Positions 817 through 62,316 of a DNA stretch of 64,000 nucleotides are shown piece by piece. Numbering within the stretch: the stretch's first letter is position 1; every line of letters begins with the position of its first letter. The position numbers and the translations under genes are program-made. The notes under the pieces were generated by a model. The model was given only the letters and a program-made list of their open reading frames with translations, made no database searches and was not told where the DNA came from. Source of the stretch: Clostridiales bacterium (lineage in GTDB: Bacteria > Bacillota > Clostridia > Oscillospirales > Oscillospiraceae); NCBI GenBank assembly GCA_012521555.1, contig JAAYMC010000024.1, forward strand, positions 1,437 to 65,436, written 5' to 3'.

Positions 817-892
817 TGGTCCGAGTGACAGGACTTGAACCTGCGGCATCCTGCTCCCAAAGCAGGCGCGCTACCAACTGCGCTACACCCGG
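817..892 (-). tRNA. tRNA-Pro (anticodon TGG)
   Basis: Reverse complement CCGGGTGTAGCGCAGTTGGTAGCGCGCCTGCTTTGGGAGCAGGATGCCGCAGGTTCAAGTCCTGTCACTCGGACCA: 7-bp acceptor stem, D loop, TGG anticodon, GTTCAA T loop, encoded CCA. Confidence 0.97.
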
Positions 893-4580: not shown

Positions 4581-5840
4581 ATGGAGACGACGAAGACCCT
4601 CGGCATTTATATTCATATACCGTTTTGCATGGCAAAATGCGCCTACTGCGACTTTTACTCCCTGGCCGACCGCGAGAAGCTCATGCCGGATTTCCAGCAT
4701 GCCCTTCTCCGCCACATCAAGGAGTACGCGCCGCAGCTGGACGGGTACCTGATCGACACCGTCTATTTCGGCGGCGGCACGCCCAGTTTCTACGGGAGCG
4801 ACCGCCTCATCCGCATTTTCAACGCCCTGAAAAAATACGGCAACGTCCTTATCGACTCGGAGGTGACCGTCGAGGTCAACCCCGGCACCATCACGAAGGC
4901 GGATATGCAGCGCCTCATCCGCACCGGGTTTAACCGCATATCCATCGGCGTGCAGACGTCGGACGACGGGCTGCTCAAAAGCCTGGGCCGCCGCCACACC
5001 TTCGCCGACGCGGAGGAGACGGTGAAAAACGCGCGCGAGGCCGGGTTTAAAAACGTGAGCATCGACCTCATCTACGGCCTGCCGTCCCAGACGCGCGACG
5101 CGTGGGCGGAGACGCTCAACCGCGCCGCCGCGCTCAAGCCGGACCACATCTCGTGTTACGGCCTGAAAATTGAGGAGGGGTCGCAGCTTTATATCTACAA
5201 GAACTCGCCCTTCATCCCGGACGACGACGCGCAAGCCGATATGTACCTGTACGCGGTGGAGGCCCTCGAGCGGTTCGGCTACAGGCAGTACGAAATCTCA
5301 AACTTCGCCCGCCGCGGGTTTGAGTCGAAGCACAACCTCAAGTACTGGATGGGGGACGAGTACCTCGGCTTCGGCCCGGGGGCGCACTCCTACATCGGCG
5401 GCAAACGGTACAACTTCATCGCCGACCTCGAGCGGTATATCGAAAACGTCCTCAGCGGCAAGTCTGTGGTGGACTTAAGCGAGGAAATCACCGATTTCGA
5501 GCGCGCGAGCGAGTACCTCATGCTCCGGCTTCGCACGACGCGGGGCATCTCCGAGGAGGAGTACTACGAGATCTACCCGTGCAGCATGGAAAAGGCGGTC
5601 GAGCTCTTCAAGCAGTATGAAAAGCACGGCTGGGCGCAGTTTAAGGACGGGCGGTGGAGCTTCACGCCCGAGGGCTTTTTACGCTCGAACATCCTCATCG
5701 GCCAGCTCCTCGAGACGCAGACGAAGCAGCGCTCGCTGATGACGCGCCCGTGGGAGCAGCCGGAAGACGCCCTGCTGCGCTCGCAGCTGACGCTGTTCGA
5801 CTTAAAGCCCAAGGAAGTGCAGATGTTCCGCGGGATTTAG
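4581..5840 (+). CDS. hemW: radical SAM heme chaperone HemW (HemN-like)
   Basis: IYIHIPFCMAKCAYCDF (CxxxCxxC), YFGGGTPS, YEISNFA, HNLKYW, YLGFGPGAHS. Confidence 0.92.
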   Translation: METTKTLGIYIHIPFCMAKCAYCDFYSLADREKLMPDFQHALLRHIKEYAPQLDGYLIDTVYFGGGTPSFYGSDRLIRIFNALKKYGNVLIDSEVTVEVNPGTITKADMQRLIRTGFNRISIGVQTSDDGLLKSLGRRHTFADAEETVKNAREAGFKNVSIDLIYGLPSQTRDAWAETLNRAAALKPDHISCYGLKIEEGSQLYIYKNSPFIPDDDAQADMYLYAVEALERFGYRQYEISNFARRGFESKHNLKYWMGDEYLGFGPGAHSYIGGKRYNFIADLERYIENVLSGKSVVDLSEEITDFERASEYLMLRLRTTRGISEEEYYEIYPCSMEKAVELFKQYEKHGWAQFKDGRWSFTPEGFLRSNILIGQLLETQTKQRSLMTRPWEQPEDALLRSQLTLFDLKPKEVQMFRGI

Positions 5841-5983
5841 GGGAGCGCCCTGAAAGAGTAACAGATATTGTATCTAAATGTAATCGATTGTTCTTGAATT
5901 TACGGCGCTCGACTCGTTAGACTAATAGAAAAACCGCTGTGTTTTGCGGCGGTTTTTGGGAGAATGTGGACTTTTACGTAGAA

Positions 5984-7744
5984 ATGAGTGTTATGGTGAA
6001 GAAAGCAGCAGAAAAAAAAGGAAACAAGACGGTAAAAGTCATTATAATAACCGCTTTGGCGCTTGTTGTCGTCGTCGTGGGCGGCATACTCGGCGCCGGG
6101 CTTTACGCCGGCGGGATGGGCACCGTTTTTCCCAACGTCTCGGCAAGCGGCGTCCCCCTCGGGGGGCTGACGCTTTCTGAGGCGGCGCGCGCCCTTGCCG
6201 GCGCCGGATACGATAAGAGCCTTGAGCAGGTCTACGCCGTCATCAATTTCCCCGACGACGAGTCGCTCGTCGTGAAAGGGACGGAGGCGGGGCTTTCGCT
6301 CACGTCGCAGCAGGCGGCGCAGGTCGCCTACGATTACGGCAGGTCGCCGAACGTGTTCCGCCGCGGCGTCAACTATTTAACCTCGTTCTTTAAAAGCGTG
6401 GACGTGCTGCGCGATAAGCTCGGCCCGCTCAACGAAGGGTACCTGCGCGGCGTTGTCAGGGAGCGCGTGGAGGCTTTCAACCGCAAGGCCGAGAAAGACA
6501 GCTACACCGTCACCGAAACGCAGATTCTCATCACGAAGGGCAGCGCGGGCCGGAAGGCCGACGAGGACGCCGTGTACACGATGCTCGTCGACGCGCTGGT
6601 CAAGTCGGCGGAGCAGAACGCGCCCGTCGAAGTGGAATACAACATCGGCAGCGAGGGCGGGGACACCATCGACCTCGAGGCCATCTTAAACGACGTCAGG
6701 GTCGAGCCCGTCAACGCGCGGTACGACCCGGAGACGTACTCCATCGTCCCGCATGTAAACGGCGTGAGCTTCGACCTCGAGGCGGCCAGAAAAGCGCTCG
6801 AGAGCGCCGATACGGGCGAGACGGTGGCAATTGACCTCGTTATCGCCCCGCCGGATGTCACGACGGAGGCGCTCGAGAAAATCTATTTTGCCGACGTGCT
6901 CGTCGAGAAGACGACGCATGTGGCCGGCACGAGCAACCGCCGCCACAATGTGCGCCTTGCGGCCGAGACCATCAACAACCTCGTGCTCAATCCGGGCGAC
7001 ACCTTCTCGTTTAACAAGACGGTCGGCCAGCGCACGCTCGAGCGCGGCTACAAGCCGGCCGGCGCGTACGTGGGCGGCGAAGTCGTCGACGAAGTCGGCG
7101 GCGGGATATGCCAGGTCTCGTCGATGCTCTACCACAACGCGTTGTACGCGGATCTGGAAATCGTCAGCCGCAAAAACCACATGTTCACCGTCTCGTACCT
7201 GCCGCTCGGCATCGACGCCACAATCAACTGGGGCACCATCGACTTTAAGTTCAAAAACAACACCGATTACCCCATCCGCATCGTCACGCACTACGACGAG
7301 GAGAAACACGACCTGACCGTCACGTTCTACGGGACGAAGACGTCCGACAAGAGGATTGAGGTCGTCTACGAAGTCATAAAGAAGACGAACCCGGAGACGA
7401 TTTATAAAGAAGACCCGAGCGTCGCCGAGGGGAAGACCGTCACGAAGCAATCGGGCAGCGCCGGCTACACGGTGGACACCTATAAGCTGGTGTACGACAA
7501 GGACGGCAAGCTCGAGAGCAAGACGTACATCGACCGCAGCACGTACCGCCCGCAAAACAAGATCGTGCTCGTCCCCGTCGGCTCGCTCACCCAGGGCGAG
7601 GCGGGAGCGCCGGCGCAGGAGACGGGCGCAAATGAGTCGCCCGCGCCCGAAGCGCCTGAGACGCCCGTGACGCCGCCGCCCGCGCCCGAACCTCCCGCCG
7701 GAGAGCCCGCGGATGCTCAGACGGCCGGCGAGGCGGCGGAATAA
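5984..7744 (+). CDS. membrane-anchored VanW family protein with peptidoglycan-binding and G5-like regions and a Pro/Glu/Ala-rich tail
   Basis: N-terminal basic stretch plus TM helix. VanW core NRRHNVRLAA...FSFNKTVGQRT...GGGICQVSSMLY...DATINWGTIDFKFKN. Start uncertain (5984 or 5993). Confidence 0.85.
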   Translation: MSVMVKKAAEKKGNKTVKVIIITALALVVVVVGGILGAGLYAGGMGTVFPNVSASGVPLGGLTLSEAARALAGAGYDKSLEQVYAVINFPDDESLVVKGTEAGLSLTSQQAAQVAYDYGRSPNVFRRGVNYLTSFFKSVDVLRDKLGPLNEGYLRGVVRERVEAFNRKAEKDSYTVTETQILITKGSAGRKADEDAVYTMLVDALVKSAEQNAPVEVEYNIGSEGGDTIDLEAILNDVRVEPVNARYDPETYSIVPHVNGVSFDLEAARKALESADTGETVAIDLVIAPPDVTTEALEKIYFADVLVEKTTHVAGTSNRRHNVRLAAETINNLVLNPGDTFSFNKTVGQRTLERGYKPAGAYVGGEVVDEVGGGICQVSSMLYHNALYADLEIVSRKNHMFTVSYLPLGIDATINWGTIDFKFKNNTDYPIRIVTHYDEEKHDLTVTFYGTKTSDKRIEVVYEVIKKTNPETIYKEDPSVAEGKTVTKQSGSAGYTVDTYKLVYDKDGKLESKTYIDRSTYRPQNKIVLVPVGSLTQGEAGAPAQETGANESPAPEAPETPVTPPPAPEPPAGEPADAQTAGEAAE

Positions 7745-7747
7745 GTG

Positions 7748-7780
7748 AAAAAACAGCCGAACGCCGTTCGGCTGTTTTTT
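7748..7780 (+). terminator. intrinsic terminator
   Basis: AAAAAACAGCCGAAC-GCC-GTTCGGCTGTTTTTT. Confidence 0.8.
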
Positions 7781-7860
7781 GCCGCGCTCTCAAAGCGGAA
7801 TATCTCCGCCGCCGCGCCAATATCGTAAGAAAGGCAGTATGCAGAAAAGGAAGCCGGAGT

Positions 7861-8430
7861 ATGAGTTTTATTGAAATTATTGCGCTCGCATTTGGCCTTG
7901 CGATGGACGCCGTCGCCGTCGCAATCTGCAAGGGGCTTGGCGCCGTGCGCCTGACGTGGAAGAATACCCTGACCGTCGGCGCGTGGTTCGGCGGCTTTCA
8001 GGCCCTTATGCCGGCGCTCGGCTTCCTCCTCGGCACGACGTTTGCCGGCTACATCAAGGCGTATTCCGGATGGATTGCCTTTGTGCTCCTCGCCGTCATC
8101 GGCGTGAACATGATCCGCGAAGCCATTTCGGGAGAAGGCGCGGAGGACCACCCCGCCGTCTGCTCCTTTTCGGCGCGCTCGATGTTTCTGCCCGCCGTCG
8201 CCACCAGCATCGACGCTCTCGCCGTGGGCGTGACGTTTTCGTTCCTCGACGTCGATATCCTGCCCGCGGCGGCCCTCATCGGCGTGATGACGTTTATCCT
8301 CTCCGGCATCGGCGTGCGCATCGGGCACTTCTTCGGCAAGCGCTTTCAAAAGCCCGCGGAAATCACGGGCGGGTGCATCCTCTGCCTGCTGGGCGTGAAA
8401 ATCCTCCTTGAGCAGCTCGGCGTGCTGTAA
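7861..8430 (+). CDS. mntP: manganese efflux pump MntP family
   Basis: Two repeats GLAMDAVAVAI and ATSIDALAVG; six hydrophobic segments. Confidence 0.9.
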   Translation: MSFIEIIALAFGLAMDAVAVAICKGLGAVRLTWKNTLTVGAWFGGFQALMPALGFLLGTTFAGYIKAYSGWIAFVLLAVIGVNMIREAISGEGAEDHPAVCSFSARSMFLPAVATSIDALAVGVTFSFLDVDILPAAALIGVMTFILSGIGVRIGHFFGKRFQKPAEITGGCILCLLGVKILLEQLGVL

Positions 8431-8460
8431 GCGTCGAAGGTTATATGGCCAATAAAATAA

Positions 8461-8490
8461 AAAACCGCGCACTTGCCAGTGCGCGGTTTT
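8461..8490. terminator. bidirectional intrinsic terminator
   Basis: AAAACCGCGCACT-TGCC-AGTGCGCGGTTTT between convergent genes. Confidence 0.8.
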
Positions 8491-8565
8491 TCGCGTTTTG
8501 GCGGCTTGCCGCCGCTTTTTTGCAATTCGAGCGTTTTTGCGCGATGCAGCCTCATCGCGGTTGCT

Positions 8566-9693
8566 TTAGGCGTCCGGGCTGTCAGCAAGCCACGTGACGA
8601 GCAGGTCCACGCACGCACCGTAGGAGCGGACGCCGAGCTCCTGCCCGTAGCTTTTGAGGAACCCGTCGTACAGGGTCGACGCCGCCTCCGACGCCGGCGT
8701 CTCGAAACGCTCCCAGTAGGCGCTCTGCTCGGCAAAGTCGGAAAGGACTTCGGCGCTGAGCGTCTGGGACAGGGCGTACCACGCGTCGGGGTCGGCCCCG
8801 TAGAGCGCGTCGGAGAGGTAGAGCAGGCCGCCGAAGTACCCGGAGTAGGCGTAGACGTCGTTTCCGGAGGTGATGCAGGCGGCAATCGAGGCGAAGTTGG
8901 CCTCGTCCTCCGAGTGGACGCCGCGCTGGTGCGCCATTTCGTGGGCGATTGTAAACGGGATGGTAAAGACCGGCACGTCCACGTTGACGTTCGCCTCGCC
9001 CGTAAACCCGTAGTACACGCCCGTAAAGCCGAGGTAGCTCATGATTCTGGAAAAAATCATCGGCTTCGGGGGGTAGGCGGGGGCGTCCATCACGGGAAAC
9101 TCCGAGACAATCCCGTCGTACACGGCGGCGGACTGGTCGAAGATCTCGCGCAGGGGGACGCGCACGCGCCCGTTTTCATCCCGCGGGACTTTTCTGGAGT
9201 ATTCGCTCGCCTTCTCGGCAAACAGCGCCGTAACGCGCCTTAAGTCCTCGACGGAGACGCCGTCGCTTATCAGGCCGGTCTTTTCCGCGAGATTGCGGCC
9301 GCTGTAGCCGATGCCCCACGTCCACGAAAACAGCGCCGCTACCCACGCCGCCACGGTGACCATGACGGACAGGTGCCGCAAAACAGCCTTCAGCCGCGCG
9401 GTGCGGCGGATGAGCGCGACGATGAGCGCGGCAAGCGCCGCAAATACCCAGACAACGCACGCGGCGATGAGGATTTCGCTGACGGATATGTAGCGCAGCG
9501 GCCCGAGCGAGGTGACTTGAGCGAGAAAGCCGCGCAGCGGGGCGGAAATCGCTTGCTCCGCCCGGTCCGCCCGGGTCGGGTCCCCCCGCATGATAAGGAA
9601 GAGCAGGAGAGAGAAAAGCGGTATGATGAGCGCCGCAATGCGGACTGCAAGGGCGCAGCGCGCGGCGCGTTTTTGTCTGAGCTTATGTACCAT
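8566..9693 (-). CDS. DUF3810-like membrane zincin protein
   Basis: N-terminal TM helices; GFTGVYYGFTGEANVN, TIAHEMAHQRG (HExxH), EDEANF. Confidence 0.8.
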   Translation of the reverse strand: MVHKLRQKRAARCALAVRIAALIIPLFSLLLFLIMRGDPTRADRAEQAISAPLRGFLAQVTSLGPLRYISVSEILIAACVVWVFAALAALIVALIRRTARLKAVLRHLSVMVTVAAWVAALFSWTWGIGYSGRNLAEKTGLISDGVSVEDLRRVTALFAEKASEYSRKVPRDENGRVRVPLREIFDQSAAVYDGIVSEFPVMDAPAYPPKPMIFSRIMSYLGFTGVYYGFTGEANVNVDVPVFTIPFTIAHEMAHQRGVHSEDEANFASIAACITSGNDVYAYSGYFGGLLYLSDALYGADPDAWYALSQTLSAEVLSDFAEQSAYWERFETPASEAASTLYDGFLKSYGQELGVRSYGACVDLLVTWLADSPDA

Positions 9694-12308: not shown

Positions 12309-12965
12309 ATGCCGGCATTCGACTACAAAAAAGCGTACAAGGACCTTTACGAGCCGAAGGCGGCGCCGGCCATCATCGACGTGCCGGCCATCAGCTTCAT
12401 CGCCGTGCGGGGCGAGGGGGACCCGAACGAGGAAGGCGGAGCGTATCAGAACGCCGTCGAGCTGCTCTACGGCGTCGCCTACACGCTGAAAATGAGCGAG
12501 AAGGCCGGATACAAAATCGACGGATACTTCGACTACGTCGTCCCGCCGCTGGAGGGGTTCTGGTGGCAGCCGGGCGTGAAGGGCGTCGATCTCACGCACA
12601 AGGAAAGCTTCCACTGGATTTCCGCCATCCGCACGCCGGACTTCGTCACGGAAGGGGACGTGAAATGGGCGGTGGAGACGGCCTCGAAAAAGAAAAAGCG
12701 GGACTTTTCCGCCGTTGAGTTTCTCACGATTACGGAGGGGCTTTGCGTCCAGTGCCTGCACGTCGGCCCATACGACTCAGAGCCGGAGACCGTCGCCGCC
12801 ATGCACCGGTTTATCGACGAAATGGGCTACGAAACGGACTTTTCCGACACGCGCTTTCACCACGAAATTTACCTGAGCGACCCGCGCAAGGTCAGCCCCG
12901 AAAAACTCAAAACCGTGATCCGGCACCCGATCAAAAACCGTTACGCGGCGCTCCGGAAGGCCTGA
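12309..12965 (+). CDS. GyrI-like small-molecule-binding domain protein
   Basis: FDYKKAYKDLY, GEGDPN, VVPPLEGFWW, LHVGPYDSE, HHEIYLSDPRK. Confidence 0.85.
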   Translation: MPAFDYKKAYKDLYEPKAAPAIIDVPAISFIAVRGEGDPNEEGGAYQNAVELLYGVAYTLKMSEKAGYKIDGYFDYVVPPLEGFWWQPGVKGVDLTHKESFHWISAIRTPDFVTEGDVKWAVETASKKKKRDFSAVEFLTITEGLCVQCLHVGPYDSEPETVAAMHRFIDEMGYETDFSDTRFHHEIYLSDPRKVSPEKLKTVIRHPIKNRYAALRKA

Positions 12966-13035
12966 CAGGCCGCCCGGAGCTTTGTTTTGCCGCTCGCGCG
13001 GAGCCTAAAAAGCAGCCGAAACTGCCCCGCAAGGG

Positions 13036-13064
13036 TTGACAAGATGGAAATTGTATGGTATCTA
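13036..13064 (+). promoter_or_regulatory. sigmaA-type promoter
   Basis: TTGACA (13036-13041), 17-nt spacer, TGn-TATCTA extended -10 (imperfect). Confidence 0.65.
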
Positions 13065-13068
13065 GTAA

Positions 13069-13095
13069 TTAGCACTCTAACCCGTCGAGTGCTGA
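13069..13095. promoter_or_regulatory. CIRCE element (HrcA operator)
   Basis: TTAGCACTC-TAACCCGTC-GAGTGCTGA, 17/18 match to TTAGCACTC-N9-GAGTGCTAA, just downstream of the -10 box. Confidence 0.85.
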
Positions 13096-13290
13096 CGAAA
13101 GTGAACAAAACAGTGTGACTGTATAGCAAATACAGAGCTGTCTTCCAAAAGAAGAGAGAAACGGTTTTGTGAAGCTTTTGCCTTGTATCGGGTGAACTTC
13201 GCGTTATCCCGCCGGATAACATTATCTTCCCATCAAAGCTGAATGAAGTTCATGACAAGGCGCTGTATCTGGTATACGGCGCCTTTTTCT
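13096..13290 (+). ncRNA. candidate structured leader or small RNA ending in an intrinsic terminator
   Basis: Nested stems identified by eye (see findings) and terminator AAGGCGCTGTAT-CTGGT-ATACGGCGCCTT-TTT at 13257-13288. No recognised family. Confidence 0.45.
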
Positions 13291-13344
13291 GTCTTCTTTT
13301 GCGTCAGCACCGGCGAAAATCCTAAAGAAGAACGAGGTGATGAA

Positions 13345-15192
13345 ATGCAGGCTTTGATACTCGCAGCCGGAATGGGGACGCGGCTGAAGGACCTGACGAA
13401 AAACGCCGCGAAATGCATGGTCAAGGTGGACGGGAAACCGCTGATTGAGCGGATGCTCTGCCAGCTTGACGAGCTGGAGCTGAGTGAGATTCACATCGTC
13501 GTCGGATACATGGCGCGGGACGTCATCTCCTTTGTCCGTTCCCTGAAGATACGCACTCCCGTCCGGTTTATTGAAAACGAACTGTACGCGACGACGAACA
13601 ACATCTACTCGCTGTACATGGCGCGGGAGGTGCTCAAAAAGGACGACACGCTGCTGCTTGAGTCCGACCTCATCTTGAGCGACGGCATCCTCGGCCGGCT
13701 CGCGGACAGCCCGCACCCGAACGTGGCCCTCGTTGCGCCTTATGAAAGCTGGATGGACGGCACCGTCGTCAAAGTCGACGGGGAAGGGAATATCACGCGG
13801 TTTATCGAGAAGAAGGAGTTTGATTTCCGGGAGATCCCGAGCTATTACAAGACCGTCAACATCTACAAGTTCAGCCGGGAGTTTTCCGAGCGGTATTTCG
13901 TGCCGTTCCTCGCCGCCCACATCGAGTCTGAGTGCAAAAACGCGTATTACGAGCACGTTTTGAAGGTGCTGAGCTTCATCGACGGCTCCCTGATAAAAGC
14001 GGAAATTCTGGGCGGCGAGGCATGGTATGAAATCGACGACGCGCAGGACCTCGATATCGCCGAGTCCCTCTTTACGGACTTAAAGTACGACAAAATCAAA
14101 AGCCGCTACGGGGGTTACTGGCGATACCCGAAGCTTTTGGATTTCTGCTACCTTGTCAATCCCTACTACCCGCCGCGCCGGATGCTGGACGAGCTGAAGG
14201 CGAATTTCGAGGCGCTGATTTGCAGCTACCCGTCGGGCATCGAAGTCAACAGCCTGATTGCGGGGAAATACTTCGGCCTGAAGAAAGAGCACGTCTGCCC
14301 GGGTAACGGCGCGGCCGAACTCATCCGCTCCCTGATGGGGGCCCTGAGCGGCAACGTCGGCATCGTATATCCCACTTTTGAGGAATACCCGAACCGCCTG
14401 TGCAAAAACAAAATCGTGCCGTACTACCCGAAAGGCAGGGATTTCACGTATACGGCCAAAGACCTGGCCGATTATTACGGGCGGTTTGCCGTCGAGGCCG
14501 TTATCCTCGTCAACCCGAACAACCCGACGGGCTTTATGCTCGGCCGGGACGAGGTGCTCGCTCTCGCCAAATGGGCGGGGGAGAGAGGAATCCGGCTTGT
14601 GGTGGACGAGTCGTTTGTCGACTTTTGTGACGCGCCGGAAAAGCAGACCCTGCTCTCGGAGGCGATTTTGCAGGACAACACAAACCTTGTCGTGATAAAA
14701 AGCATTTCCAAGTCCTTCGGGGTGCCCGGGCTGCGCCTCGGGATTGCCGCAAGCGCCGACGAGGAGCTCATTCGTTCCCTCAAGAGCGACGTGGCGATCT
14801 GGAACATCAACTCCATCGCCGAGTGCTTCCTGCAGATTTTTGAAAAATACAAAAAGGATTACGACCAGGCCCTTGAGACATTCCGCCTCGTCCGCAGGCA
14901 GTTTATCGAGAAGCTGCGCCATGTCCCGAATCTCAGGGTGCTGCCCACGCAGGCCAACTTCGTCCTGTGCGAAGTCCTGGGCGGGTGCTCGGCGGAAAAG
15001 CTCGCCGAGACGCTGCTGTGCGAGCATAACATCCTGATAAAGGACCTTGGCGGCAAAAAGGGCATCAGCGGCGAGTATATCCGCGTGGCCGTCAGAACGC
15101 GGGAAGACAACAGCCGTCTTGCCGCCGCCTTGAGCAAGGTCCTCGGGCAGTCCGGCCGGGTCAGGCAGTACAATCTCGGCATGAGCGGATAG
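13345..15192 (+). CDS. fused LicC-like nucleotidyltransferase and class I/II PLP-dependent enzyme (CobD/HisC-like)
   Basis: N-terminus MQALILAAGMGTRL...KCMV...TNNIYSL...LLESDL...WYEIDD. C-terminus GNGAAELI, NPNNPTG, VVDESF, KSISKSFGVPGLRLG (PLP lysine). GAGGTG RBS. Confidence 0.85.
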   Translation: MQALILAAGMGTRLKDLTKNAAKCMVKVDGKPLIERMLCQLDELELSEIHIVVGYMARDVISFVRSLKIRTPVRFIENELYATTNNIYSLYMAREVLKKDDTLLLESDLILSDGILGRLADSPHPNVALVAPYESWMDGTVVKVDGEGNITRFIEKKEFDFREIPSYYKTVNIYKFSREFSERYFVPFLAAHIESECKNAYYEHVLKVLSFIDGSLIKAEILGGEAWYEIDDAQDLDIAESLFTDLKYDKIKSRYGGYWRYPKLLDFCYLVNPYYPPRRMLDELKANFEALICSYPSGIEVNSLIAGKYFGLKKEHVCPGNGAAELIRSLMGALSGNVGIVYPTFEEYPNRLCKNKIVPYYPKGRDFTYTAKDLADYYGRFAVEAVILVNPNNPTGFMLGRDEVLALAKWAGERGIRLVVDESFVDFCDAPEKQTLLSEAILQDNTNLVVIKSISKSFGVPGLRLGIAASADEELIRSLKSDVAIWNINSIAECFLQIFEKYKKDYDQALETFRLVRRQFIEKLRHVPNLRVLPTQANFVLCEVLGGCSAEKLAETLLCEHNILIKDLGGKKGISGEYIRVAVRTREDNSRLAAALSKVLGQSGRVRQYNLGMSG

Positions 15193-15202
15193 AGGTCATG
15201 GC

Positions 15203-15835
15203 ATGATGGAGAAAAAAGAAAAAGAGTACACAATGCTGCACTTCCTGGCAGACATACCCAATCTCTGTTCCCTCGCGGGGCTGCTCTGCTCGTTTCTCGG
15301 CGTCTATTTTGCAATCCGCGGGCAGTTTCACTATGCCCTCGTGGGCGTTTTGTGGGCCGTCGTCTTCGACTGGCTGGACGGGATGGTCGCCAAAAGGATG
15401 AAAGACAGGGACGATAAGCACCGCGCCGTGGGCGTGCAGCTCGACTCGCTGATTGACATCGTCAGTTTCGGCGTCTTTCCGGCCGTCTTTCTGCTCAGTT
15501 TCGGGGAGTTCAAACCCGCCTTCATCCCGGGCGCGTTTCTCATCGTGGGCGGCGCGGCGCTGCGGCTCGGCTATTTCAACGTCTTCGGGATGATCGACAA
15601 GCACACGTACAGGGGGCTTGCGCTGGACAACAACGTCCTCCTGCTCGCGCTGATTTTCCTGCTGGAGCGGCTGATCCCGCGCGGGGTGTTTGCCGCCGTC
15701 CTCTACGCCGTCCTGATGGCGCTGCTCGCGCTCAATCTGGCGCCCATCCGCACGTATAAGTTCGGCGGCAAGTGGTTTTACGCGCTGCTGGGCTATGTCG
15801 TCGTCATGACGGCCTGCTACGTCTTTCTTTTGTAA
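15203..15835 (+). CDS. CDP-alcohol phosphatidyltransferase family protein
   Basis: DWLDGMVAK...GVQLDSLID matches the DGxxAR...GxxxDxxxD signature; multiple TM segments. Confidence 0.9.
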   Translation: MMEKKEKEYTMLHFLADIPNLCSLAGLLCSFLGVYFAIRGQFHYALVGVLWAVVFDWLDGMVAKRMKDRDDKHRAVGVQLDSLIDIVSFGVFPAVFLLSFGEFKPAFIPGAFLIVGGAALRLGYFNVFGMIDKHTYRGLALDNNVLLLALIFLLERLIPRGVFAAVLYAVLMALLALNLAPIRTYKFGGKWFYALLGYVVVMTACYVFLL

Positions 15836-15881: not shown

Positions 15882-15916
15882 AGGACCCGGTTTGCGTCTT
15901 TCGCAAACCGGGTCCT
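15882..15916. terminator. perfect hairpin between convergent genes, probable terminator
   Basis: AGGACCCGGTTTGCG-TCTTT-CGCAAACCGGGTCCT. Confidence 0.75.
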
Positions 15917-15959: not shown

Positions 15960-16745
15960 TTATCCCGCCGGGATCATGCGCCCCGTGTGGTCGATGGTGT
16001 ACTCGCCCTTGAGCAGCAGCTCCGATACCGGCACAATCTGATACCCGTTTGCCAGCAGGTACTCGATGATTGCCGGCAGGGCGGCGGGCGTGTTCTTCGC
16101 CGCGTTGTGGAAGAGCACGATGCTGCCCGGCTGCACGCGGGACGTGACGCGCTGGACAATCTGGTCGGCCGTCAGGTCCTTCCAGTCCAGGCTGTCGACA
16201 TCCCACTGGATCGTGTACATGCCCATGGAAGTCAGGGCTTTAATCACGTGGTCGTCGTATTCGCCGTAGGGGCAGCGGAAGAGGGTGGGCGTCACGCCCG
16301 TGACGGCGGCGATTTTTTCGTTGCACTTTGTGACGTTGCTGATAATCTGGTCGGTGGACAGGCGCGAGAAGTGCGCGTGGTCGTTGGAATGGTTCATCAC
16401 CTCGTGCCCGGCGTCGTGCAGGGCTTTAACGGACTCGGGGTATTTGTCCACCCAGAAGCCCACGACGAAAAACGTGGCTTTCACGTTGTATTTGGCGAGA
16501 ATATCAATCAGCTCCTCGGTGTCCTCGTTGCCCCAAGCCGCGTCGAAAGTAAGCGAAACGGCCTTGTTGTCCCGCTTGACGCAGTAAATCGGCAGCTCCC
16601 GCTTTGTCGCCGACACGCCCACGATGGCCGGGGAGTTGACGGCCGTGAAAATCAAAACGGTGGCGAGCGCGGTAAGCAGCGCTGTTTTTATCTTCCGGTT
16701 TGAGATTTTCGGAAGCTTCAGCCCCATAATCTGCATGCGGCGCAT
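15960..16745 (-). CDS. polysaccharide deacetylase (CE4, PdaB-like)
   Basis: N-terminal TM segment, LTFDAAWG, NHSNDH, FRCPYGEY, IQWDVDSLDW, VLFHN. Confidence 0.9.
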   Translation of the reverse strand: MRRMQIMGLKLPKISNRKIKTALLTALATVLIFTAVNSPAIVGVSATKRELPIYCVKRDNKAVSLTFDAAWGNEDTEELIDILAKYNVKATFFVVGFWVDKYPESVKALHDAGHEVMNHSNDHAHFSRLSTDQIISNVTKCNEKIAAVTGVTPTLFRCPYGEYDDHVIKALTSMGMYTIQWDVDSLDWKDLTADQIVQRVTSRVQPGSIVLFHNAAKNTPAALPAIIEYLLANGYQIVPVSELLLKGEYTIDHTGRMIPAG

Positions 16746-16884: not shown

Positions 16885-17850
16885 ATGAGGACAGGCGCAA
16901 GCCTGCCCCCATATATGGCAAACACTGAGACTTCTGGGCGCAATGTCGATAGATATGAGGCAATGTCCTCGAATGAAATAAACGTCGGCGGGGCGACCGT
17001 CCTCGACTGCGGCGTGCACGCCGAAGGCGGCTTTGAGGCCGGCTTGCTGCTGGCCCGCGCGTGCCTCGGCGGCCTTGCGGACGTGACGCTCATCTGGGCC
17101 GATTACGAGGGCTACCGCTGGCCGAGCGTCTCGGTGGCGACGGACCATCCGGTCCGCGCCTGCATGGCGTCCCAGTACGCGGGCTGGCCCATCAAATGCG
17201 GCGGGAAGCTGTACATGGGCTCCGGCCCGGCCTGCGCCGTCGTCTGCCGGGGGAGCCTGTTCCGCGAGCTCGAGTACAAGGATGAGACGGACGTTATCGT
17301 CCTCTGCCTTGAGTGCCCGCGCCTGCCGGACGAAGACGTCGTCCGCCTCGTAGCCGGAGAGTGCGGGTGCTCTCCCGAACGGCTGTACATCCTCGCCGCG
17401 CCGACGGCGTCCGTCGCCGGGACGGTGCAGGTGGCCGCCCGCGCGCTGGAGACGGCGCTGTTTAAGCTCAGGCGGCTCAAATACGACCTCGGGAAAATCG
17501 TCTCCGGCATGGCCGTGTGCCCCTTATCGCCCGTCGCGGGCTCGACGAAGCACGCGCTCGGCCGCACGAACGACGCCATCTCCTACGGCGCCGTGGCGCA
17601 GATTCATGTGCGCGACGAGGACGATGCGCTGCGTAAAATCGTCCCGCTGGTGCCGTCGTGCGCGGCGCCGGAGTACGGGAAGTCGTATGTCGACATCAAA
17701 ACCGAGCACAACAACTTCTTTAATCTCAGCCCGGAGCAGTTTAACCCCGCCGTCATCGAGATGTGCAACTTAAGCACGGGCCGCGTGTTCCGCGCCGGCG
17801 CCATCCGGGCGGACATCCTCGCGCGCTCCTTCGCCGTCGAAGCCTTTTAG
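16885..17850 (+). CDS. mch: methenyltetrahydromethanopterin cyclohydrolase homolog
   Basis: GATVLDCG, CLGGLA, TDHP...CMASQYAGW, MGSGPA, APTASVAGTVQVAARALET, GRTNDAI, YGKS and a C-terminal NLSTGRVFRAG follow the Mch family in order. Start uncertain (16885 or 16915). Confidence 0.85.
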   Translation: MRTGASLPPYMANTETSGRNVDRYEAMSSNEINVGGATVLDCGVHAEGGFEAGLLLARACLGGLADVTLIWADYEGYRWPSVSVATDHPVRACMASQYAGWPIKCGGKLYMGSGPACAVVCRGSLFRELEYKDETDVIVLCLECPRLPDEDVVRLVAGECGCSPERLYILAAPTASVAGTVQVAARALETALFKLRRLKYDLGKIVSGMAVCPLSPVAGSTKHALGRTNDAISYGAVAQIHVRDEDDALRKIVPLVPSCAAPEYGKSYVDIKTEHNNFFNLSPEQFNPAVIEMCNLSTGRVFRAGAIRADILARSFAVEAF

Positions 17851-39779: not shown

Positions 39780-39911
39780 GATTGAGCGTCTCCTTTTCCT
39801 TGTGTAATGGTCAGATGAACGATATAATTATATCGCAGCCGAACCGACTAAAATAGAAAAGAATACTCATAAAATATAACAATATTACCACTTTGCAAAG
39901 GAATGGGCGGC

Positions 39912-40817
39912 ATGAACCGGCAGGCCATCTCAACGGACAGCTCCCTGCAGTCCCTCAATGATTACGGCGGATACGATTTCCCGATGCGGCTTTATCTGGA
40001 CGATTTTCGCAGTCTCCCTCTCGGGCACATCAACTGGCACTGGCACAAGCAGCTTGAGTTTTCCTGCGTGCTGCGGGGCGAAATTGAATACAGCGTGGGG
40101 GAGGCGAAAATCCGGCTGGGGCAAGGAGAGGGTGTTTTCATCAACGCCGGGCGGCTGCACGCAATAAGGCCCGCCGCCGGCCATGAAAACGCGATGGCCT
40201 TTTCCCTCGTTTTCAGCCCGGCAATCCTGTCTTACGGCGTGGAGAGCATCGTTTACCAAAAGTACGTCCTGCCGGTCGCGCAGGACAGGCGCCTGCACTG
40301 CTTAACGCTCAGACAGGACATCCCCTGGCAGAGGGAGATGCTGGCGCTGCTGGCTCAGCTTTACGGCCTTTTTCAGGAGCGGCCCTACGGGTTTGAGCTT
40401 TCCGCCCAGTCGCTTCTGGTGCAGGCCTGGCGGGAGATGGTTCTCCACCTTAACCGGAATACGGCGGAAAAGGGCGGCGCGGGAGACGCGAGCGAAGAGA
40501 GGCTCAAGCGCATGATCTCCTGCATTCAGGCAAATTTCAGCGAGGCTCTGACCCTTCAGCAGATTGCGTCGGCCGCCAGCGTGAGCAAAAGCGAGTGCAT
40601 CCGCTGCTTTAAGAAGCGGCTTGGCGTCACGCCGGTTGAATACCTGATTGAGTACCGCCTGTCAAAGGCGATGGAGTATTTGGACGGGACGGATTTGCCC
40701 GTTGCGGAAATCGGCCAGCGCTGCGGCTTTGAAAGCGCCAGCTATTTCGCGAAAACCTTCAGGCGCCGGACGGGGCTGAGCCCCTCCGGCTACCGGAAAA
40801 GGCGCGCGTCCGGCTGA
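39912..40817 (+). CDS. AraC family transcriptional regulator (cupin sensor plus HTH)
   Basis: WHWHKQLEF cupin; C-terminal LQQIA...ECIRCFKK...GFESASYFAKTFRRRTGLSPSGYRK. Confidence 0.93.
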   Translation: MNRQAISTDSSLQSLNDYGGYDFPMRLYLDDFRSLPLGHINWHWHKQLEFSCVLRGEIEYSVGEAKIRLGQGEGVFINAGRLHAIRPAAGHENAMAFSLVFSPAILSYGVESIVYQKYVLPVAQDRRLHCLTLRQDIPWQREMLALLAQLYGLFQERPYGFELSAQSLLVQAWREMVLHLNRNTAEKGGAGDASEERLKRMISCIQANFSEALTLQQIASAASVSKSECIRCFKKRLGVTPVEYLIEYRLSKAMEYLDGTDLPVAEIGQRCGFESASYFAKTFRRRTGLSPSGYRKRRASG

Positions 40818-41011
40818 AAACAAACCGAAGGCTCCATGACGCGTTTGCGGCATGGAGCCTGGGTGTTTTGGCGGAATTTGCCTAATTTTAGGTATAAGAT
40901 GATGATATTTTTGCATTTTACAAAGAAAAAACAGGCTGGTAACATTTGATTGCGGGTACCAGAAAGGTATACAATGAAAGAAAGACCGCACATAAAAGGG
41001 GGCTTACAGGG

Positions 41012-43465
41012 ATGTATCAGTTCAGGCCGGTGACAGAACGCATGGAGCGGATGCACCAGCTCATTCGGGACCGCGTCATTCAGACAGACTCTGAGATTGC
41101 GCTGATTATCACGCGTGTTTTTCAGGAGAACGAAAACCTCGTCCCGATGATTCGCCGTGCGAAGGTCCTCAAAGCGATTTGCGAGGAGATGACCGTTCGC
41201 GTTGAAGATTTTGAGATGCTTGTGGGCAGTATCAGCCGGTACTTTTGCGGCCGGAGCGTTTTCCCCGACTGGGAAGGCGCCGGCCTCGTGCCGCACTTTG
41301 TGGAATCCGGCGTCTGGACAATGCGGGAAGACGGGCGGTACCATAACCCCGACGACGAGATGGTGCGCCTGTGCATCGCGCCGGAGGATTTGGAGAAGCT
41401 CAAGTCGATCCAGCCCTACTGGAAAGGCAGGACGTACAACGACATCGCCTCGGCGTGGCTGCCGCCCGGATACGAGGAGCTTGCCCGCATGGAAGTGTCC
41501 GCCACGAAAAAGGGGATGCCCGTCCTCATGATGCCGTCCGGGCACCTCACGCCGGGCTTTAAGAAGATCATCGACTTAGGTTACGGGGCCATCCGCCGGC
41601 AGGCGCAGGAATGGCTCGACGCGCACTACAACAACCTCATGGGCGACGACGCGACGAAAGCGATGTTTTACACCGCCGTCGTGATGTGCTGCGACGCGGC
41701 GTCGACGCTGCTGCGGCGCTACGCGAAAAATTGCCTTGAGAAGGCCGCCGTCTGCGCGGATCCAAAGCGCAGGGCGGAGCTTCAGTCCATGGCGGACAGC
41801 CTGGCGTGGATCTCCGAAAACCCCTGCCGCACCTTCCGCGAGGCCTGCCAGGCGGCCATCACATACCAGTACATCCTGCGTTTAAGCTACATCAACGACG
41901 TCAGCTCCTTCGGCCGGTTCGACCAGTATACGTGGCCGTACCTGAAGAAGGATCTGGAGGAAGGGCGCCTGACGATGGACGAGGCGCAGGAAATCGTCGA
42001 CTGCTTCTTCCTCAAGGTCAACTCCATGTACTACGGCGGCGCCGGCGACGGGAAGCTCGCGGCCATCATCGGCATCGGCAACACCTACCTGCACACGACC
42101 ATCGGCGGCGTCGACCCGAAGACGGGGGAGGACGCGTCCAACCCCGTCACCTACATGGTTTTAGAGAGCCTGTCCCGCCTGAGCCTGCACGACCCGACGA
42201 TTTCGCTGCGTGTGAGCAGCAAAACGCCGGATGCGCTGTGGAACCTCGCGCTGCTCACGTCGACGAAAGTCGGCGGCCTGCCGCTGTTCCAGAACGACGA
42301 CGTCATCATCCCCGGCATCGTGCGCGAGCTGGGCTTTACGCTGGAGGACGCGCGGGATTACGCCATTATCGGCTGCCAGGAGATCACCGGCTCCGGCAAC
42401 GACTATTCCGCGGCCAACGGCGTCTGCCCGCCCCACTCCTCAATCCACTACAGCGCCGTCCTGGCGACGGCCCTCAACAACGGCAAAAACCCCATGAACG
42501 GGGAGCAGTGCTCCATCAAGACGGGGTATCTCTACGAGATGAAGTCCATAGAGGAAGTCAAGGAGGCATGGCTGAAGCTTGCCAAGTACTTCCTCAAGGC
42601 GCAGGTGTCCCTCAACAACTACTTAGAGTACATCGTCCAGTACCACACGCCGCACCCGATGCTCTCCATGTCCATCGAAGGGTGCATGGAGTCAGGCAAG
42701 GACTGCACGTGGGGCGGCGCCAAATACAACTCGTACGGCGGCACCGCGACGGGCCTTGCCACCGTGGCCGACTCCCTCACGGCCATCCGGTACATGGTCT
42801 TTGACAAGAAACTGTGCACCGCCCGCGAGATGTACGACGCCATCATGGCCAACTGGGAAGGCTACGAAGAGCTCCAGCAGAGAATCATCAGCGAAGTGCC
42901 CCACTTCGGCAACGCCGACCCGTACGCCGACGAGATGATGGCGTGGGTCATAAACGCCTACTACGAGGCCTGCAGGGAGTGCTACTCCAGCCGGGCGAAG
43001 GTTTTCAAGGCGGGGCTCTACGGCGCGGCCGACCACGTCGGGCAGGGCTACACGACGTGGGCCACGCCCGACGGGCGCAAGGCCGGCACGCCGATTGCCG
43101 ACGCGGCTTCCCCCGTCCAGGGGCGCGACACAAACGGGCCGACGGCCGTGTTCGTCTCGTCCCTCTGCTACGACCACTCCAAGTTCATGGACGGCGTGTG
43201 CCTCAACGTGAGACTGCACCCGACGGTTTTAAGCCGAGAAGACGGCATCTATAAGCTGCGCGACATGGTCAAAGCGTACATGGCCGCCGGCGGCGCGGAA
43301 GCGCAGTTTAACGTCGTGTCCACCGAGACGCTGCGCGCCGCGCAGGCAAAGCCCGACGAATACCGCAACCTCGTCGTCCGCATCGCCGGCTACTCGGCCT
43401 ACTTCGTCGAGCTCACGCGCGACTGCCAGGACGACCTCATCTCCCGCACCGAAAATCTGCTCTAG
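41012..43465 (+). CDS. glycyl radical enzyme (PFL2/dehydratase-like, uncharacterised subfamily)
   Basis: 817 aa; GRFDQY, Cys loop AIIGCQE (42371-42382), ATPDGRKAG, glycyl loop VVRIAGYSAYF (Gly at 43388-43390). Confidence 0.92.
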   Translation: MYQFRPVTERMERMHQLIRDRVIQTDSEIALIITRVFQENENLVPMIRRAKVLKAICEEMTVRVEDFEMLVGSISRYFCGRSVFPDWEGAGLVPHFVESGVWTMREDGRYHNPDDEMVRLCIAPEDLEKLKSIQPYWKGRTYNDIASAWLPPGYEELARMEVSATKKGMPVLMMPSGHLTPGFKKIIDLGYGAIRRQAQEWLDAHYNNLMGDDATKAMFYTAVVMCCDAASTLLRRYAKNCLEKAAVCADPKRRAELQSMADSLAWISENPCRTFREACQAAITYQYILRLSYINDVSSFGRFDQYTWPYLKKDLEEGRLTMDEAQEIVDCFFLKVNSMYYGGAGDGKLAAIIGIGNTYLHTTIGGVDPKTGEDASNPVTYMVLESLSRLSLHDPTISLRVSSKTPDALWNLALLTSTKVGGLPLFQNDDVIIPGIVRELGFTLEDARDYAIIGCQEITGSGNDYSAANGVCPPHSSIHYSAVLATALNNGKNPMNGEQCSIKTGYLYEMKSIEEVKEAWLKLAKYFLKAQVSLNNYLEYIVQYHTPHPMLSMSIEGCMESGKDCTWGGAKYNSYGGTATGLATVADSLTAIRYMVFDKKLCTAREMYDAIMANWEGYEELQQRIISEVPHFGNADPYADEMMAWVINAYYEACRECYSSRAKVFKAGLYGAADHVGQGYTTWATPDGRKAGTPIADAASPVQGRDTNGPTAVFVSSLCYDHSKFMDGVCLNVRLHPTVLSREDGIYKLRDMVKAYMAAGGAEAQFNVVSTETLRAAQAKPDEYRNLVVRIAGYSAYFVELTRDCQDDLISRTENLL

Positions 43466-43530
43466 CGGATTTATGCCGCCAAAGACCGCAATATCATCCT
43501 CTTTGCCCGGAAACGAGGCTTTTTTGCCGG

Positions 43531-43563
43531 AAAGGGCGCCGCTGACAAAGCGGCGCCCTTTTT
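43531..43563 (+). terminator. intrinsic terminator after the GRE gene
   Basis: AAAGGGCGCCGCT-GACAA-AGCGGCGCCCTTTTT. Confidence 0.8.
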
Positions 43564-43731
43564 GTATTTTCTTTAGGAGGAGGGAGACTGACAGTACAAA
43601 TTTGAGCGCAGTCATTCCGACTAAAAATACTACAAATTAATTATGAGTAATTAATATCAATTAGGCAAATACGAAATTTTGTAAAAATTCTTGCAATTTT
43701 ATAACTATCCGATGGACATTCGGCTTTGAGA

Positions 43732-43760
43732 TTGACAAAAATTTATCAAACTTCTATCCT
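43732..43760 (+). promoter_or_regulatory. sigmaA promoter of the hbd operon with an overlapping Rex-like palindrome
   Basis: TTGACA-N17-TATCCT; TTGACAA-AAAT-TTATCAA (43732-43749) covers the -35 box. Confidence 0.55.
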
Positions 43761-43859
43761 GACAGTAGATAAATCGTTATATTGTTGACAGCATGCACGA
43801 AGGCGTCGCGAAAAAGCGGAATACGGCATCGGCAACAATGAGAAAGAGGAGATCGTTAT

Positions 43860-44747
43860 ATGGAAAAGGTATTTATCGTCGGCGGAGGCATTATGGGAAC
43901 CGGCATGGCGCAGGTGTTTGCCCAGAACGGTTTTGAGACGATTCTCCGCGTCCGGAATCTCGGCGGCGGCCGGAAAGAGGAGCTCGCGGCCGGGTTTGAA
44001 AAGAGCTTTGGAAAGCTTGTCAAAAAAGGCAAGATGACCGAAGACGAGGCGTGGGCGGCGCTCGCCAGGATTACATACACGGAAAATCTGGCGGACGCAA
44101 AGGACTGCGATCTCGTCATCGAGGCGATTGTTGAGGACCTGGAGCTGAAGAAGGAGCTGTTTGCGGAGCTCGACGCGATCTGCAAACCTGAAACGATTCT
44201 GGCGACGAACACGTCGTCCCTGTCCATCACGGCCATCGCTCAGGCGACAGGCAGAGGCGACAAGTGCATCGGCATGCACTTCTTCAACCCCGTTCCGGTG
44301 ATGGCGCTCGTCGAGGTCATCAAGGGCGCGCACACCACGGACGAGACGAAGGACAAGGTGTTTGAGATTGTCAGGGCCATCGGCAAAACGCCTGTGCTCG
44401 TCAACGAGGCGCCGGGCTTCGTCGTCAACCGCCTGCTTGTCCCCATGATCAACGAGGCCGTTTTCTGCCTGCAGGAAGGCGTCGCCACCGCGGAAGATAT
44501 CGACAACATCATGCGGCTCGGCGCGAACCACCCGATGGGCCCCCTCGCGCTGGGCGACCTCATCGGCCTGGACGTGTGCCTGAACATCATGGACGCGCTC
44601 TACGAGGAGACGCGCGACTCCAAGTACAGGGCGTGCACGCTGCTGAGGAAGATGGTCGCGGCGGGACTGCTCGGGCGCAAGACGGGCCGCGGCTTCTTCG
44701 ACTACACATCGTCCGAGACGCAGAAAGAGAACCAAAAAGTGGGATAA
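43860..44747 (+). CDS. hbd: 3-hydroxybutyryl-CoA dehydrogenase family
   Basis: GGGIMG, IEAIVE, ATNTSSLSIT, GMHFFNPVPVM, GANHPMGP. Confidence 0.92.
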   Translation: MEKVFIVGGGIMGTGMAQVFAQNGFETILRVRNLGGGRKEELAAGFEKSFGKLVKKGKMTEDEAWAALARITYTENLADAKDCDLVIEAIVEDLELKKELFAELDAICKPETILATNTSSLSITAIAQATGRGDKCIGMHFFNPVPVMALVEVIKGAHTTDETKDKVFEIVRAIGKTPVLVNEAPGFVVNRLLVPMINEAVFCLQEGVATAEDIDNIMRLGANHPMGPLALGDLIGLDVCLNIMDALYEETRDSKYRACTLLRKMVAAGLLGRKTGRGFFDYTSSETQKENQKVG

Positions 44748-44763
44748 AACCTAGGAGGAAACA

Positions 44764-45906
<1,143 letters not shown>

Positions 45907-45931
45907 CCCTTAAGCTTAAAGGAGTGAAATT

Positions 45932-46705: not shown

Positions 46706-46733
46706 TGGCTAATCCACCAAAGGAGTCTGCTCA

Positions 46734-47522: not shown

Positions 47523-47534
47523 GGAGATAAGGAT

Positions 47535-62278: not shown

Positions 62279-62316
62279 CGGGAAGGTGTACGAAGGAAAG
62301 GCAGGAGCAGGTCAAC

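Follow-up and report, generated by a model that had tools for sequence, protein, structure and literature searches.

The repressor HrcA and its operator CIRCE are commonly portrayed as governing a small regulon made up of chaperones only. We describe a CIRCE-bearing promoter, at positions 13036-13095 of a 64-kb stretch of Clostridiales DNA (hereafter, the window), that lies ahead of a long structured leader and two biosynthetic genes. The operator and its position are those of a canonical CIRCE element; the target is not and, judged from sequence, the locus seems to extend the HrcA regulon beyond chaperones. We lean towards a model in which HrcA gates the promoter, and a terminator opposed by an antiterminator acts as a second checkpoint on the two-gene operon. 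A wider proposal, which we put forward tentatively, is that HrcA may have recruited a biosynthetic operon under two-key control, where folding stress and a second signal jointly govern a Kennedy-type route to a PE-like lipid or to a thermoprotective phosphodiester.

If true, such an arrangement, with a CIRCE retained over long evolutionary time, would link proteostasis sensing directly to envelope or solute chemistry in Clostridia-type anaerobes, and the chaperone regulon would then count control of membrane or solute chemistry among its direct and conserved outputs. To date, only indirect connections of HrcA to the cell envelope have been described (PMC3842655). We flag 2 uncharacterised items: the orphan attenuator leader, and the pair formed by the fusion enzyme and a PssA-like transferase, which may represent a route to CDP-ethanolamine in bacteria. 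As the organisms that carry the locus are uncultured inhabitants of digesters, its immediate value is as a hypothesis for heterologous tests.

Promoter, CIRCE operator and their conservation

The promoter combines a -35 hexamer, TTGACA (13036-13041, plus strand), with an extended -10 element, TGgTATCTA (13056-13064, plus strand), whose hexamer TATCTA occupies 13059-13064; the -35/-10 spacer is 17 nt. Four nucleotides beyond the -10 lies CIRCE, TTAGCACTC-N9-GAGTGCTGA (13069-13095, not assigned to a strand), the predicted HrcA binding site, built from the arms TTAGCACTC (13069-13077) and GAGTGCTGA (13087-13095) around N9 (13078-13086). Measured against the consensus TTAGCACTC-N9-GAGTGCTAA (PMC545781, PMC3842655), the element agrees at 17 of 18 arm positions, with 1 mismatch and a spacer of exactly 9. 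A pattern search of the whole 64-kb window with this consensus, allowing up to 3 mismatches, returned this single site, where the chance expectation is 0.01 per window (mean of 100 dinucleotide shuffles). Direct reading and pattern search thus bear out the original prediction of TTGACA-N17-(-10) with CIRCE after it. Its claim that the operator follows immediately is true of promoter and CIRCE, but not of operator and gene: 276 nt and a terminator separate CIRCE from the ATG.

Transcription is predicted to start at about 13070-13072, within the left CIRCE arm. The layout is that of a sigma-A/sigma-70 type promoter with the operator at the start site, and the same arrangement recurs in the 16 loci described below. 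Apart from a weak internal candidate (TTGCGT at 13299-13304, 18 nt, TAAAGA at 13323-13328), the window leader showed no further sigma-70-like promoter.

The transcription unit has recognisable boundaries. Upstream, a hairpin followed by CTTTGTTTTG (12950-12989, plus strand; -27 kcal/mol, z -3.3) is the probable terminator of a GyrI-like gene with its stop codon at 12963-12965, and probably insulates the CIRCE promoter from upstream transcription. Downstream, a hairpin at 15883-15915 (no strand assigned; -35.7 kcal/mol, z -8.6) lies between convergent genes at the end of the operon; the next gene, on the minus strand (15960-16745), encodes a polysaccharide deacetylase. The unit therefore consists of the promoter, CIRCE, a terminated leader of about 220 nt, and 2 genes.

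The absence of a chaperone downstream, as originally proposed, is confirmed: enzymes follow instead, and chaperone domains were found neither in the scanned set of roughly 40 larger window ORFs nor in the 10 kb past the window 3' end. Likewise, hrcA was not seen among these ORFs or among the called genes of that 10 kb. The gene content is that of an ordinary member of the Bacillota, with GAPDH, AlaRS, PNPase, MnmG/MnmE, ProRS, PPDK, bcd/etf, and Der-PlsY-GpsA in the window and the housekeeping genes for HprK, MurB, RapZ, and WhiA beyond its 3' end; HprK, WhiA, and Der-PlsY-GpsA identify the host as Bacillota. To our knowledge, HrcA is near-universal in this phylum.

Conservation was followed in genomes and metagenomes. 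With one genome scanned per species, 66 loci were found that encode relatives of the fusion protein specified by the first gene. The 7 closest relatives (66-86% identity) are all from MAGs, labeled Bacillota, Desulfotomaculaceae, Clostridiales, Syntrophomonadaceae, Firmicutes, Oscillospiraceae, and, in 1 case, 'Burkholderiales'; the last label is doubtful because the GC content is 48%. All 7 carry CIRCE, with 0-3 mismatches and with TTGACA-17-TGnTA, 255-428 nt 5' of the orthologue. Among the 66 loci, these 7 are also the only ones to have the downstream CDP-alcohol transferase in common; the rest of their neighborhoods is unshared. CIRCE is absent within 6 kb of all 59 remaining, more distant homologues, many of which belong to Bacillota and which include those of Paenibacillus, Bacillus, Planomicrobium, Enterococcus, Lachnospiraceae, and Oscillospiraceae. 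An alignment of the transferase, used to scan metagenomes, supplied 80 further loci. Wherever the N-terminus of the fusion was at least 66% identical to that of the window and enough upstream sequence was available, CIRCE stood at the expected place. A divergent class of around 35 loci (32-46% identity) lacks CIRCE and has unrelated upstream regions, and no other recognisable heat-shock element was found upstream of these divergent cassettes either.

Removal of duplicates left 16 distinct loci from genomes and metagenomes, in hosts of 33% to 60% GC. Throughout this close clade, CIRCE lies 241-693 nt 5' of the same two-gene cassette, amid unrelated flanking genes. MAGs with the cassette include JAAYMN01, JAQVGZ01, DUPP01, JBMNGN01, MWCQ01, and JBMNPV01, together with the bin of Ga0134101_1000169. 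The TTGACA hexamer is invariant in the 16 leaders, 33-40 nt 5' of CIRCE, and TG-n-TA keeps a constant distance from it (17-nt spacing) in every one. Within CIRCE, conservation is 100% for the left arm, 94% for the right arm, and 54% for the spacer, of which there are 16 different versions; 4 loci are exact to the 18-nt consensus, and the others carry 1-3 mismatches. Conservation of CIRCE upstream of orthologous operons, which the original prediction had named as a check, is thus seen in 16 of 16 distinct close loci.

With this pattern, the palindrome seems to be a genuine, functional HrcA operator and not a relic. That it might be the remnant of a deleted or relocated chaperone gene was considered from the outset, and is contradicted by the comparison: in 16 distinct lineages, across the full GC range and with differing neighbors, the cassette has this promoter, CIRCE, and leader in front of it, the arms have been kept while the spacers have fully diverged, and no groES, dnaK, or hrcA fragment lies nearby. 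We consider the chance of a relic to be close to negligible. It is also very unlikely, in our view, that the palindrome serves something other than HrcA, either as a 5' RNA stem-loop for mRNA stability or as the site of another protein. Such a stem-loop would fit the 14 of 16 loci where the predicted start lies just 5' of CIRCE and the transcript would open with a 9-bp hairpin; in the window, however, the start falls inside the left arm, and the RNA hairpin would be incomplete. Moreover, the arms stay within 3 mismatches of the HrcA consensus and are fixed in sequence, not merely in their ability to pair: the core changes in 3 loci (L005, L006, L075) break palindrome pairs and are never compensated, the pattern of a protein-binding DNA site and not of an RNA helix.

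The two-gene cassette and its predicted product

Gene 1 (13345-15192, plus strand) is preceded by the RBS GAGGTG (13334-13339, plus strand), 5 nt 5' of the ATG, and ACGAGGTGA is conserved in all leaders. A longer ORF from 13243 was rejected, as it crosses the terminator and is unsupported by homologues; the true start is the ATG at 13345. In Pfam and NCBIfam, the product is an NTP_transferase domain fused to Aminotran_1_2: residues 1-180 form a LicC/IPCT-like nucleotidyltransferase, and residues 250-600 a CobD-like PLP-dependent phospho-amino-acid decarboxylase. The best NCBIfam match is to a CobD-like decarboxylase, TIGR01140, at 187.7 versus a cut-off of 290.6, which places gene 1 below the cut-off of the CobD L-threonine-O-3-phosphate decarboxylase equivalog. 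The best PDB matches are 6oux (1e-47), CobD 1lc5 of Salmonella (2e-26), and LicC 1jyk. Entry 6oux, a 'threonine phosphate decarboxylase-like enzyme', is closer to the decarboxylase half than 1lc5; we take it to be the L-serine-O-phosphate decarboxylase of norcobamide synthesis in Sulfurospirillum. The nucleotidyltransferase half resembles cytidylyltransferases of the LicC, IPCT, and PntC types and matches the IPCT/DIPPS family NF041135 at 2e-13.

Gene 2 (15203-15835, plus strand) encodes a PssA-like integral-membrane protein of the CDP-OH_P_transf family (PF01066, 36.9 bits versus a cut-off of 22). It carries the motif D-x2-D-G-x2-A-[RKN]-x12-G-x3-D-x3-D of our alignment A2, with the invariant residues D56, D59, G60, A63, G77, D81, and D85 all present and, in the window, K at the R position of the family signature D-x2-D-G-x2-A-R-x8-12-G-x3-D-x3-D. 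Matches to archaetidylserine synthase and pssA fall below the family cut-offs (TIGR00473, 73.7 versus 107; NF038087, 85 versus 240), so that gene 2 is not assigned as a PssA equivalog, and its only PDB matches are PssA 7pow and 7b1k. The downstream genes are, then, what had been read from the sequence at the start, a cytidylyltransferase/PLP fusion and a CDP-alcohol phosphotransferase.

What might these enzymes make? As our best inference from domain content, phosphoserine or phosphothreonine would be decarboxylated to phosphoethanolamine or aminopropanol phosphate, activated to a CDP-alcohol, and transferred to a lipid acceptor; the two-gene operon probably makes a head group of the ethanolamine-phosphate type. 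We found no description of a decarboxylase-cytidylyltransferase fusion paired with a PssA-like transferase in the literature searched. The regulation could also be as proposed and the product be different: a soluble stress-protective phosphodiester, formed in the way that IPCT/DIPPS form di-myo-inositol phosphate, or phospho-amino-alcohol groups that decorate a glycopolymer. The membrane CDP-alcohol transferase DIPPS uses soluble substrates and yields a product that builds up under heat stress; together with the match of the nucleotidyltransferase half to the bifunctional IPCT/DIPPS family, this speaks for a soluble product. In more distant relatives, the fusion adjoins LicD, Wzy-like, and octopine-dehydrogenase-like genes, neighbors that fit a CDP-activated phospho-amino-alcohol donor and indicate glycan decoration. 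The transferase itself, however, has no match to DIPPS; with single sequence and with profile, it matches only phosphatidylserine and archaetidylserine synthases of the PssA type, weakly and below cut-offs. We judge a non-lipid product unlikely, and take a lipid head group as the working assignment.

The leader RNA and a proposed two-step control

From the predicted start to the T-run of a terminator, about 220 nt (13071-13299, plus strand; MFE -75.5 kcal/mol, z -5.1 versus shuffles) form a structured 5' leader or short RNA. Besides promoter and CIRCE, 2 elements of the leader are conserved in most of the 16 loci: a terminator and a box. The intrinsic terminator (13257-13299, plus strand) has a 12-bp stem (13257-13285), then TTTTTCTGTCTTCTTTT, and folds at -19.9 kcal/mol (z -5.4). 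Its sequence is kept in 14 of 16 leaders, with G-C/G-U/A-U exchanges and the family consensus GGCGCTGTATAT...ATACGGCGC then TTTTTCTGTTGTT; it lies 45-110 nt from the RBS across the 16 loci.

The box has the family consensus TTAATGTGCAGCGCT, 50-63 nt past the CIRCE start, and is present in the window as a degenerate copy, AAATACAGAGCTGTC (13128-13142, plus strand). It resembles the 3' arm of the terminator and is able to pair with the 5' arm, which makes it the putative 5' strand of an antiterminator, with its partner in the window at 13259-13268. The 2 pairings would compete. In 12 of 14 leaders, no other leader segment is a better partner for the 5' arm than the box, and there the duplex energies are -14 to -22 kcal/mol versus -9 to -19 for the terminator hairpins. 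When the nascent transcript is folded just before the 3' arm is made, the 5' arm pairs with the box in 9 of 14 leaders. For the variable outer helix, complementarity is higher within a locus than across loci (0.6-1.1% of permutations reach the observed value). The window and locus L001 are the weakest cases: their box, ATACAGAGCT, forms a duplex of -11.9 kcal/mol that ranks 7th of 116 windows, and the predicted fold of the nascent transcript does not join it to the terminator arm. A strain variant that co-occurs in the digesters differs at about 15% of positions across the leader and is identical over 13257-13290; its substitutions A13132G and A13136C bring back the canonical box ATGCAGCGCT. 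Taken together, a terminator that can be opposed by the box suggests an attenuator of the antiterminator type. With such a leader present, HrcA is probably not the sole control.

Another hairpin, GTTATCC-CGCC-GGATAAC then ATTATCTTCC (13203-13220, plus strand), has its stem preserved both in L001 and in the strain variant, where only the loop differs, at 13212/13213. Two RNA contigs stop at 13230-13232, just past it.

Several searches addressed the class of the leader. Rfam returned no family match, either for the whole window at gathering score or for 12900-13450 at E<=10; the best E-values (0.8-9) belong to unrelated families, among them RAGATH-19, which hits the CIRCE hairpin at E=3. RNAalifold gave no consensus pairs in the 5' domain and, for whole leaders, the CIRCE and terminator hairpins only. 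The region from box to terminator (87-226 nt) holds no universal block or shared core among the leaders. A known riboswitch or cis-RNA family was rejected on these grounds, and a leader peptide was rejected as no SD-preceded small ORF is common to the leaders. Two candidate protein sites were also dismissed: a sigma-54 site near the box has the wrong spacing by eye, and TTTGACC, before the terminator, is a single heptad where a CtsR site requires a repeat. As temperature rises, the antiterminator-terminator energy gap merely shrinks as everything melts, with no informative trend. We could not assign the leader to any described RNA family found, and refer to it as an orphan attenuator leader.

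Transcription of the locus was viewed in steady-state anaerobic-digester metatranscriptomes, as assembled contigs and not reads; many contig ends are graph branches from strain variants, and depths and ends are to be read as hints only. Transcription of the leader begins near the predicted start. In 10 RNA runs, contigs end at 12947-13004, and cover is missing as far as about 13068. Leader contigs unjoined to the upstream gene begin at 13080 (X41), 13084 (X34, with Illumina adapter directly abutting this 5' end), and 13089 (X25), 9-18 nt past the start predicted from the -10. Leader-only contigs cover 13080-13230 in X41, 13084 to about 13250 in X34, 13089-13290 in X25, and 13137-13313 in X35. 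The X25 contig stops five bases into the T-run, and 13291-13335 is uncovered. Depth of leader versus ORF is 43 versus 8.9 in X34 and 6.1 versus 2-4.7 in X41, and about equal (13.8 versus 14-17) in X25; in X35, the leader has a depth of 13.2, and the ORF start is uncovered. Contigs span the promoter in 5 or 6 runs, as read-through or as DNA. In at least 5 runs, ORF contigs begin at 13336-13420 without leader cover, which suggests a second 5' end near the ORF start, from the weak promoter TTGCGT-18-TAAAGA or from a processing site; basal expression may in that case bypass CIRCE. At the orthologous locus L071, the 10 small RNA contigs are confined to the two ORFs, with the leader and flanks left uncovered; the operon is thus transcribed there, and these contigs are uninformative on the leader.

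Repression by HrcA kept active by GroEL, and its release by stress, are established for groESL and dnaK. We infer the same for the operon described here, and with it HrcA binding, heat induction, control of read-through, and the enzyme chemistry. In unstressed cells, HrcA would occupy 13069-13095 and keep the promoter from initiating. Titration of GroEL by heat or protein-folding stress would release HrcA, and the promoter would fire. RNA polymerase would then transcribe the structured leader, with the two genes reached by read-through. At 13257-13299 the transcript would meet the terminator, against which the box may pair with the 5' arm as antiterminator, and read-through into the genes would need a second condition besides release of HrcA. 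The fusion would make a CDP-amino-alcohol, e.g., CDP-ethanolamine, and the PssA-like transferase would place the phospho-head-group on a lipid.

An alternative reading is that the CIRCE promoter mainly yields a terminated sRNA, about 160-220 nt long, with a role in trans or a function of its own, and that the operon starts separately near 13335; HrcA would then regulate an sRNA and not the enzymes. The original prediction had raised a small RNA, and part of this stands: the promoter drives a structured RNA of about 220 nt to a strong terminator, recovered as a separate contig piece. The terminator is conserved, leader contigs lie apart from ORF contigs with the X25 gap between them, leader depth exceeds ORF depth in X34 and X35, ORF contigs lack leader cover in 5 runs, and locus L004 has a perfect TTGACG-17-TATAAT right past its terminator. 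This, however, is the only strong internal promoter, and none is conserved among the leaders. Terminated riboswitch leaders likewise accumulate as short RNAs, processing of read-through RNA would yield the same contig pattern, and in L071 the RNA fragments favor the ORFs. Most of all, the leader is always on the same strand and directly 5' of the same operon in 16 loci whose other neighbors differ, and a box predicted to compete with a terminator is how a cis-attenuator is laid out. The contig gap and the leader-free ORF contigs favor an sRNA; the strict synteny and the attenuator layout favor control in cis; the two would be squared if read-through RNA is processed. We prefer the cis-acting attenuator, and hold a mainly sRNA-producing promoter to be improbable, if well short of dismissal.

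Comparison with known systems

CIRCE and HrcA are best known from groESL and hrcA-grpE-dnaK-dnaJ in Bacillus subtilis, clostridia, and many other bacteria. The element described here is the same 9-N9-9 inverted repeat, with conserved arms and a free spacer, in the same position on or just past a sigma-A-type start. The differences lie downstream. The two genes encode biosynthetic enzymes and not chaperones, and none of the products that mark a class I heat-shock operon (GroES/GroEL, DnaK/DnaJ/GrpE, HrcA, Clp/Lon) is found among them. The distance from operator to start codon is 241-693 nt, versus about 50-70 nt for those tabulated in PMC545781, and a terminator/antiterminator leader intervenes here.

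Precedents exist for HrcA control outside groE and dnaK. In the delta-proteobacteria, groESL is the HrcA/CIRCE regulon's sole constant member, and in Geobacter sulfurreducens CIRCE precedes a non-chaperone gene, rpoH (PMC545781). In Waddlia, of the Chlamydiota, CIRCE precedes the type III effector gene wcw_0502, with HrcA ChIP (PMC12038028). In both precedents the regulon reaches further, as we propose for the present locus, and CIRCE is, as here, conserved among orthologues. What is controlled there is a stress sigma factor in one case and a secreted effector in the other, whereas the present locus is predicted to serve head-group or phosphodiester biosynthesis in Clostridia-type Bacillota.

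The leader shares with riboswitch, T-box, and PyrR- or ANTAR-type attenuation systems a long 5' region, a terminator ahead of the RBS, and, putatively, a segment that would compete for the 5' arm. It differs from these in having no Rfam match, aptamer-like core, specifier or T-box, or leader peptide, and it is unusual for such a leader to be paired with a repressor operator at the promoter. The enzymes are related part by part, at the level of domains, to LicC/LicD, the Treponema CDP-choline route, IPCT/DIPPS, and CobD or the L-serine-O-phosphate decarboxylase. They share the logic of CDP-alcohol pathways, that is, activation of a phospho-alcohol with CTP and then a CDP-alcohol transferase. 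Unlike these pathways, the cassette pairs a fusion protein with a PssA-like transferase, with all family scores below equivalog cut-offs.

Possible second 5' end near the start of the operon

In five metatranscriptome runs of anaerobic-digester RNA, contigs that carry the open reading frames start at 13336-13420 of the window without covering the leader; these starts may reflect initiation at a second promoter or, alternatively, RNA processing. The window contains a weak promoter-like sequence, TTGCGT (13299-13304) and TAAAGA (13323-13328) separated by 18 nt, with a predicted start at ~13335.

A perfect TTGACG-17-TATAAT occurs in L004 (JBLNCA010000037.1), one of the close CIRCE-bearing orthologous loci, where it overlaps the leader terminator's T-run. 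The record is labeled Burkholderiales, but the locus has a GC content of 48% and combines the same leader with a perfect CIRCE and a promoter of the Clostridia type; either the taxonomic assignment or the binning appears to be wrong.

Variation in the leader and its terminator

The box (a putative antiterminator strand) and CIRCE (the predicted HrcA site) are intact in loci L117 and L123, which carry a ~430-nt insertion within the leader-terminator loop (about 1190-1590) that widely separates the terminator arms GGCGCGTTGCAAAACG and CGTTTTGCATCGCGCC. In L069 (1283-1626), the box region is present in two copies, GCAGCGCTAAA and GCAGCACTAAATCT. The leader apparently lacks the 5' arm of the terminator and may have lost attenuation. 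A conserved block, TTTTTCTGTTGTT...AAGCATGCGATTTTCAT...TTTCAACCTGAAA, is located 10-60 nt 3' of the leader terminator and before the ribosome-binding site in L002-L007 and L069-L079; the window and L001 do not carry it.

Distant relatives of the fusion and other genes of the window

The decarboxylase-cytidylyltransferase fusion is also present in Paenibacillus, Enterococcus, Merdimmobilis, Akkermansia, and Perlabentimonas (L008, L043, L017, L024, and L009; about 5000-9300), where it adjoins LicD, Wzy-like, octopine-dehydrogenase-like, or DUF1015 genes, with neither the transferase nor CIRCE at these loci.

Elsewhere in the window, a tRNA lies at 820-892 (minus strand), and the phospholipid genes plsY and gpsA lie close to the 3' end (61631-63327). 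The region 39903-48542 includes an AraC-family regulator adjoining a glycyl-radical enzyme (40946-43465), which is followed by a cluster of 3-hydroxybutyryl-CoA dehydrogenase, acyl-CoA dehydrogenase, and ETF genes. At 16885-17850 (plus strand), the otherwise Bacillota chromosome encodes a homologue of methenyl-tetrahydromethanopterin cyclohydrolase (Mch), matched by PF02289 (1.8e-98) and by TIGR03120 (320 bits versus a cut-off of 229); a Bacillota chromosome is an uncommon host for Mch.
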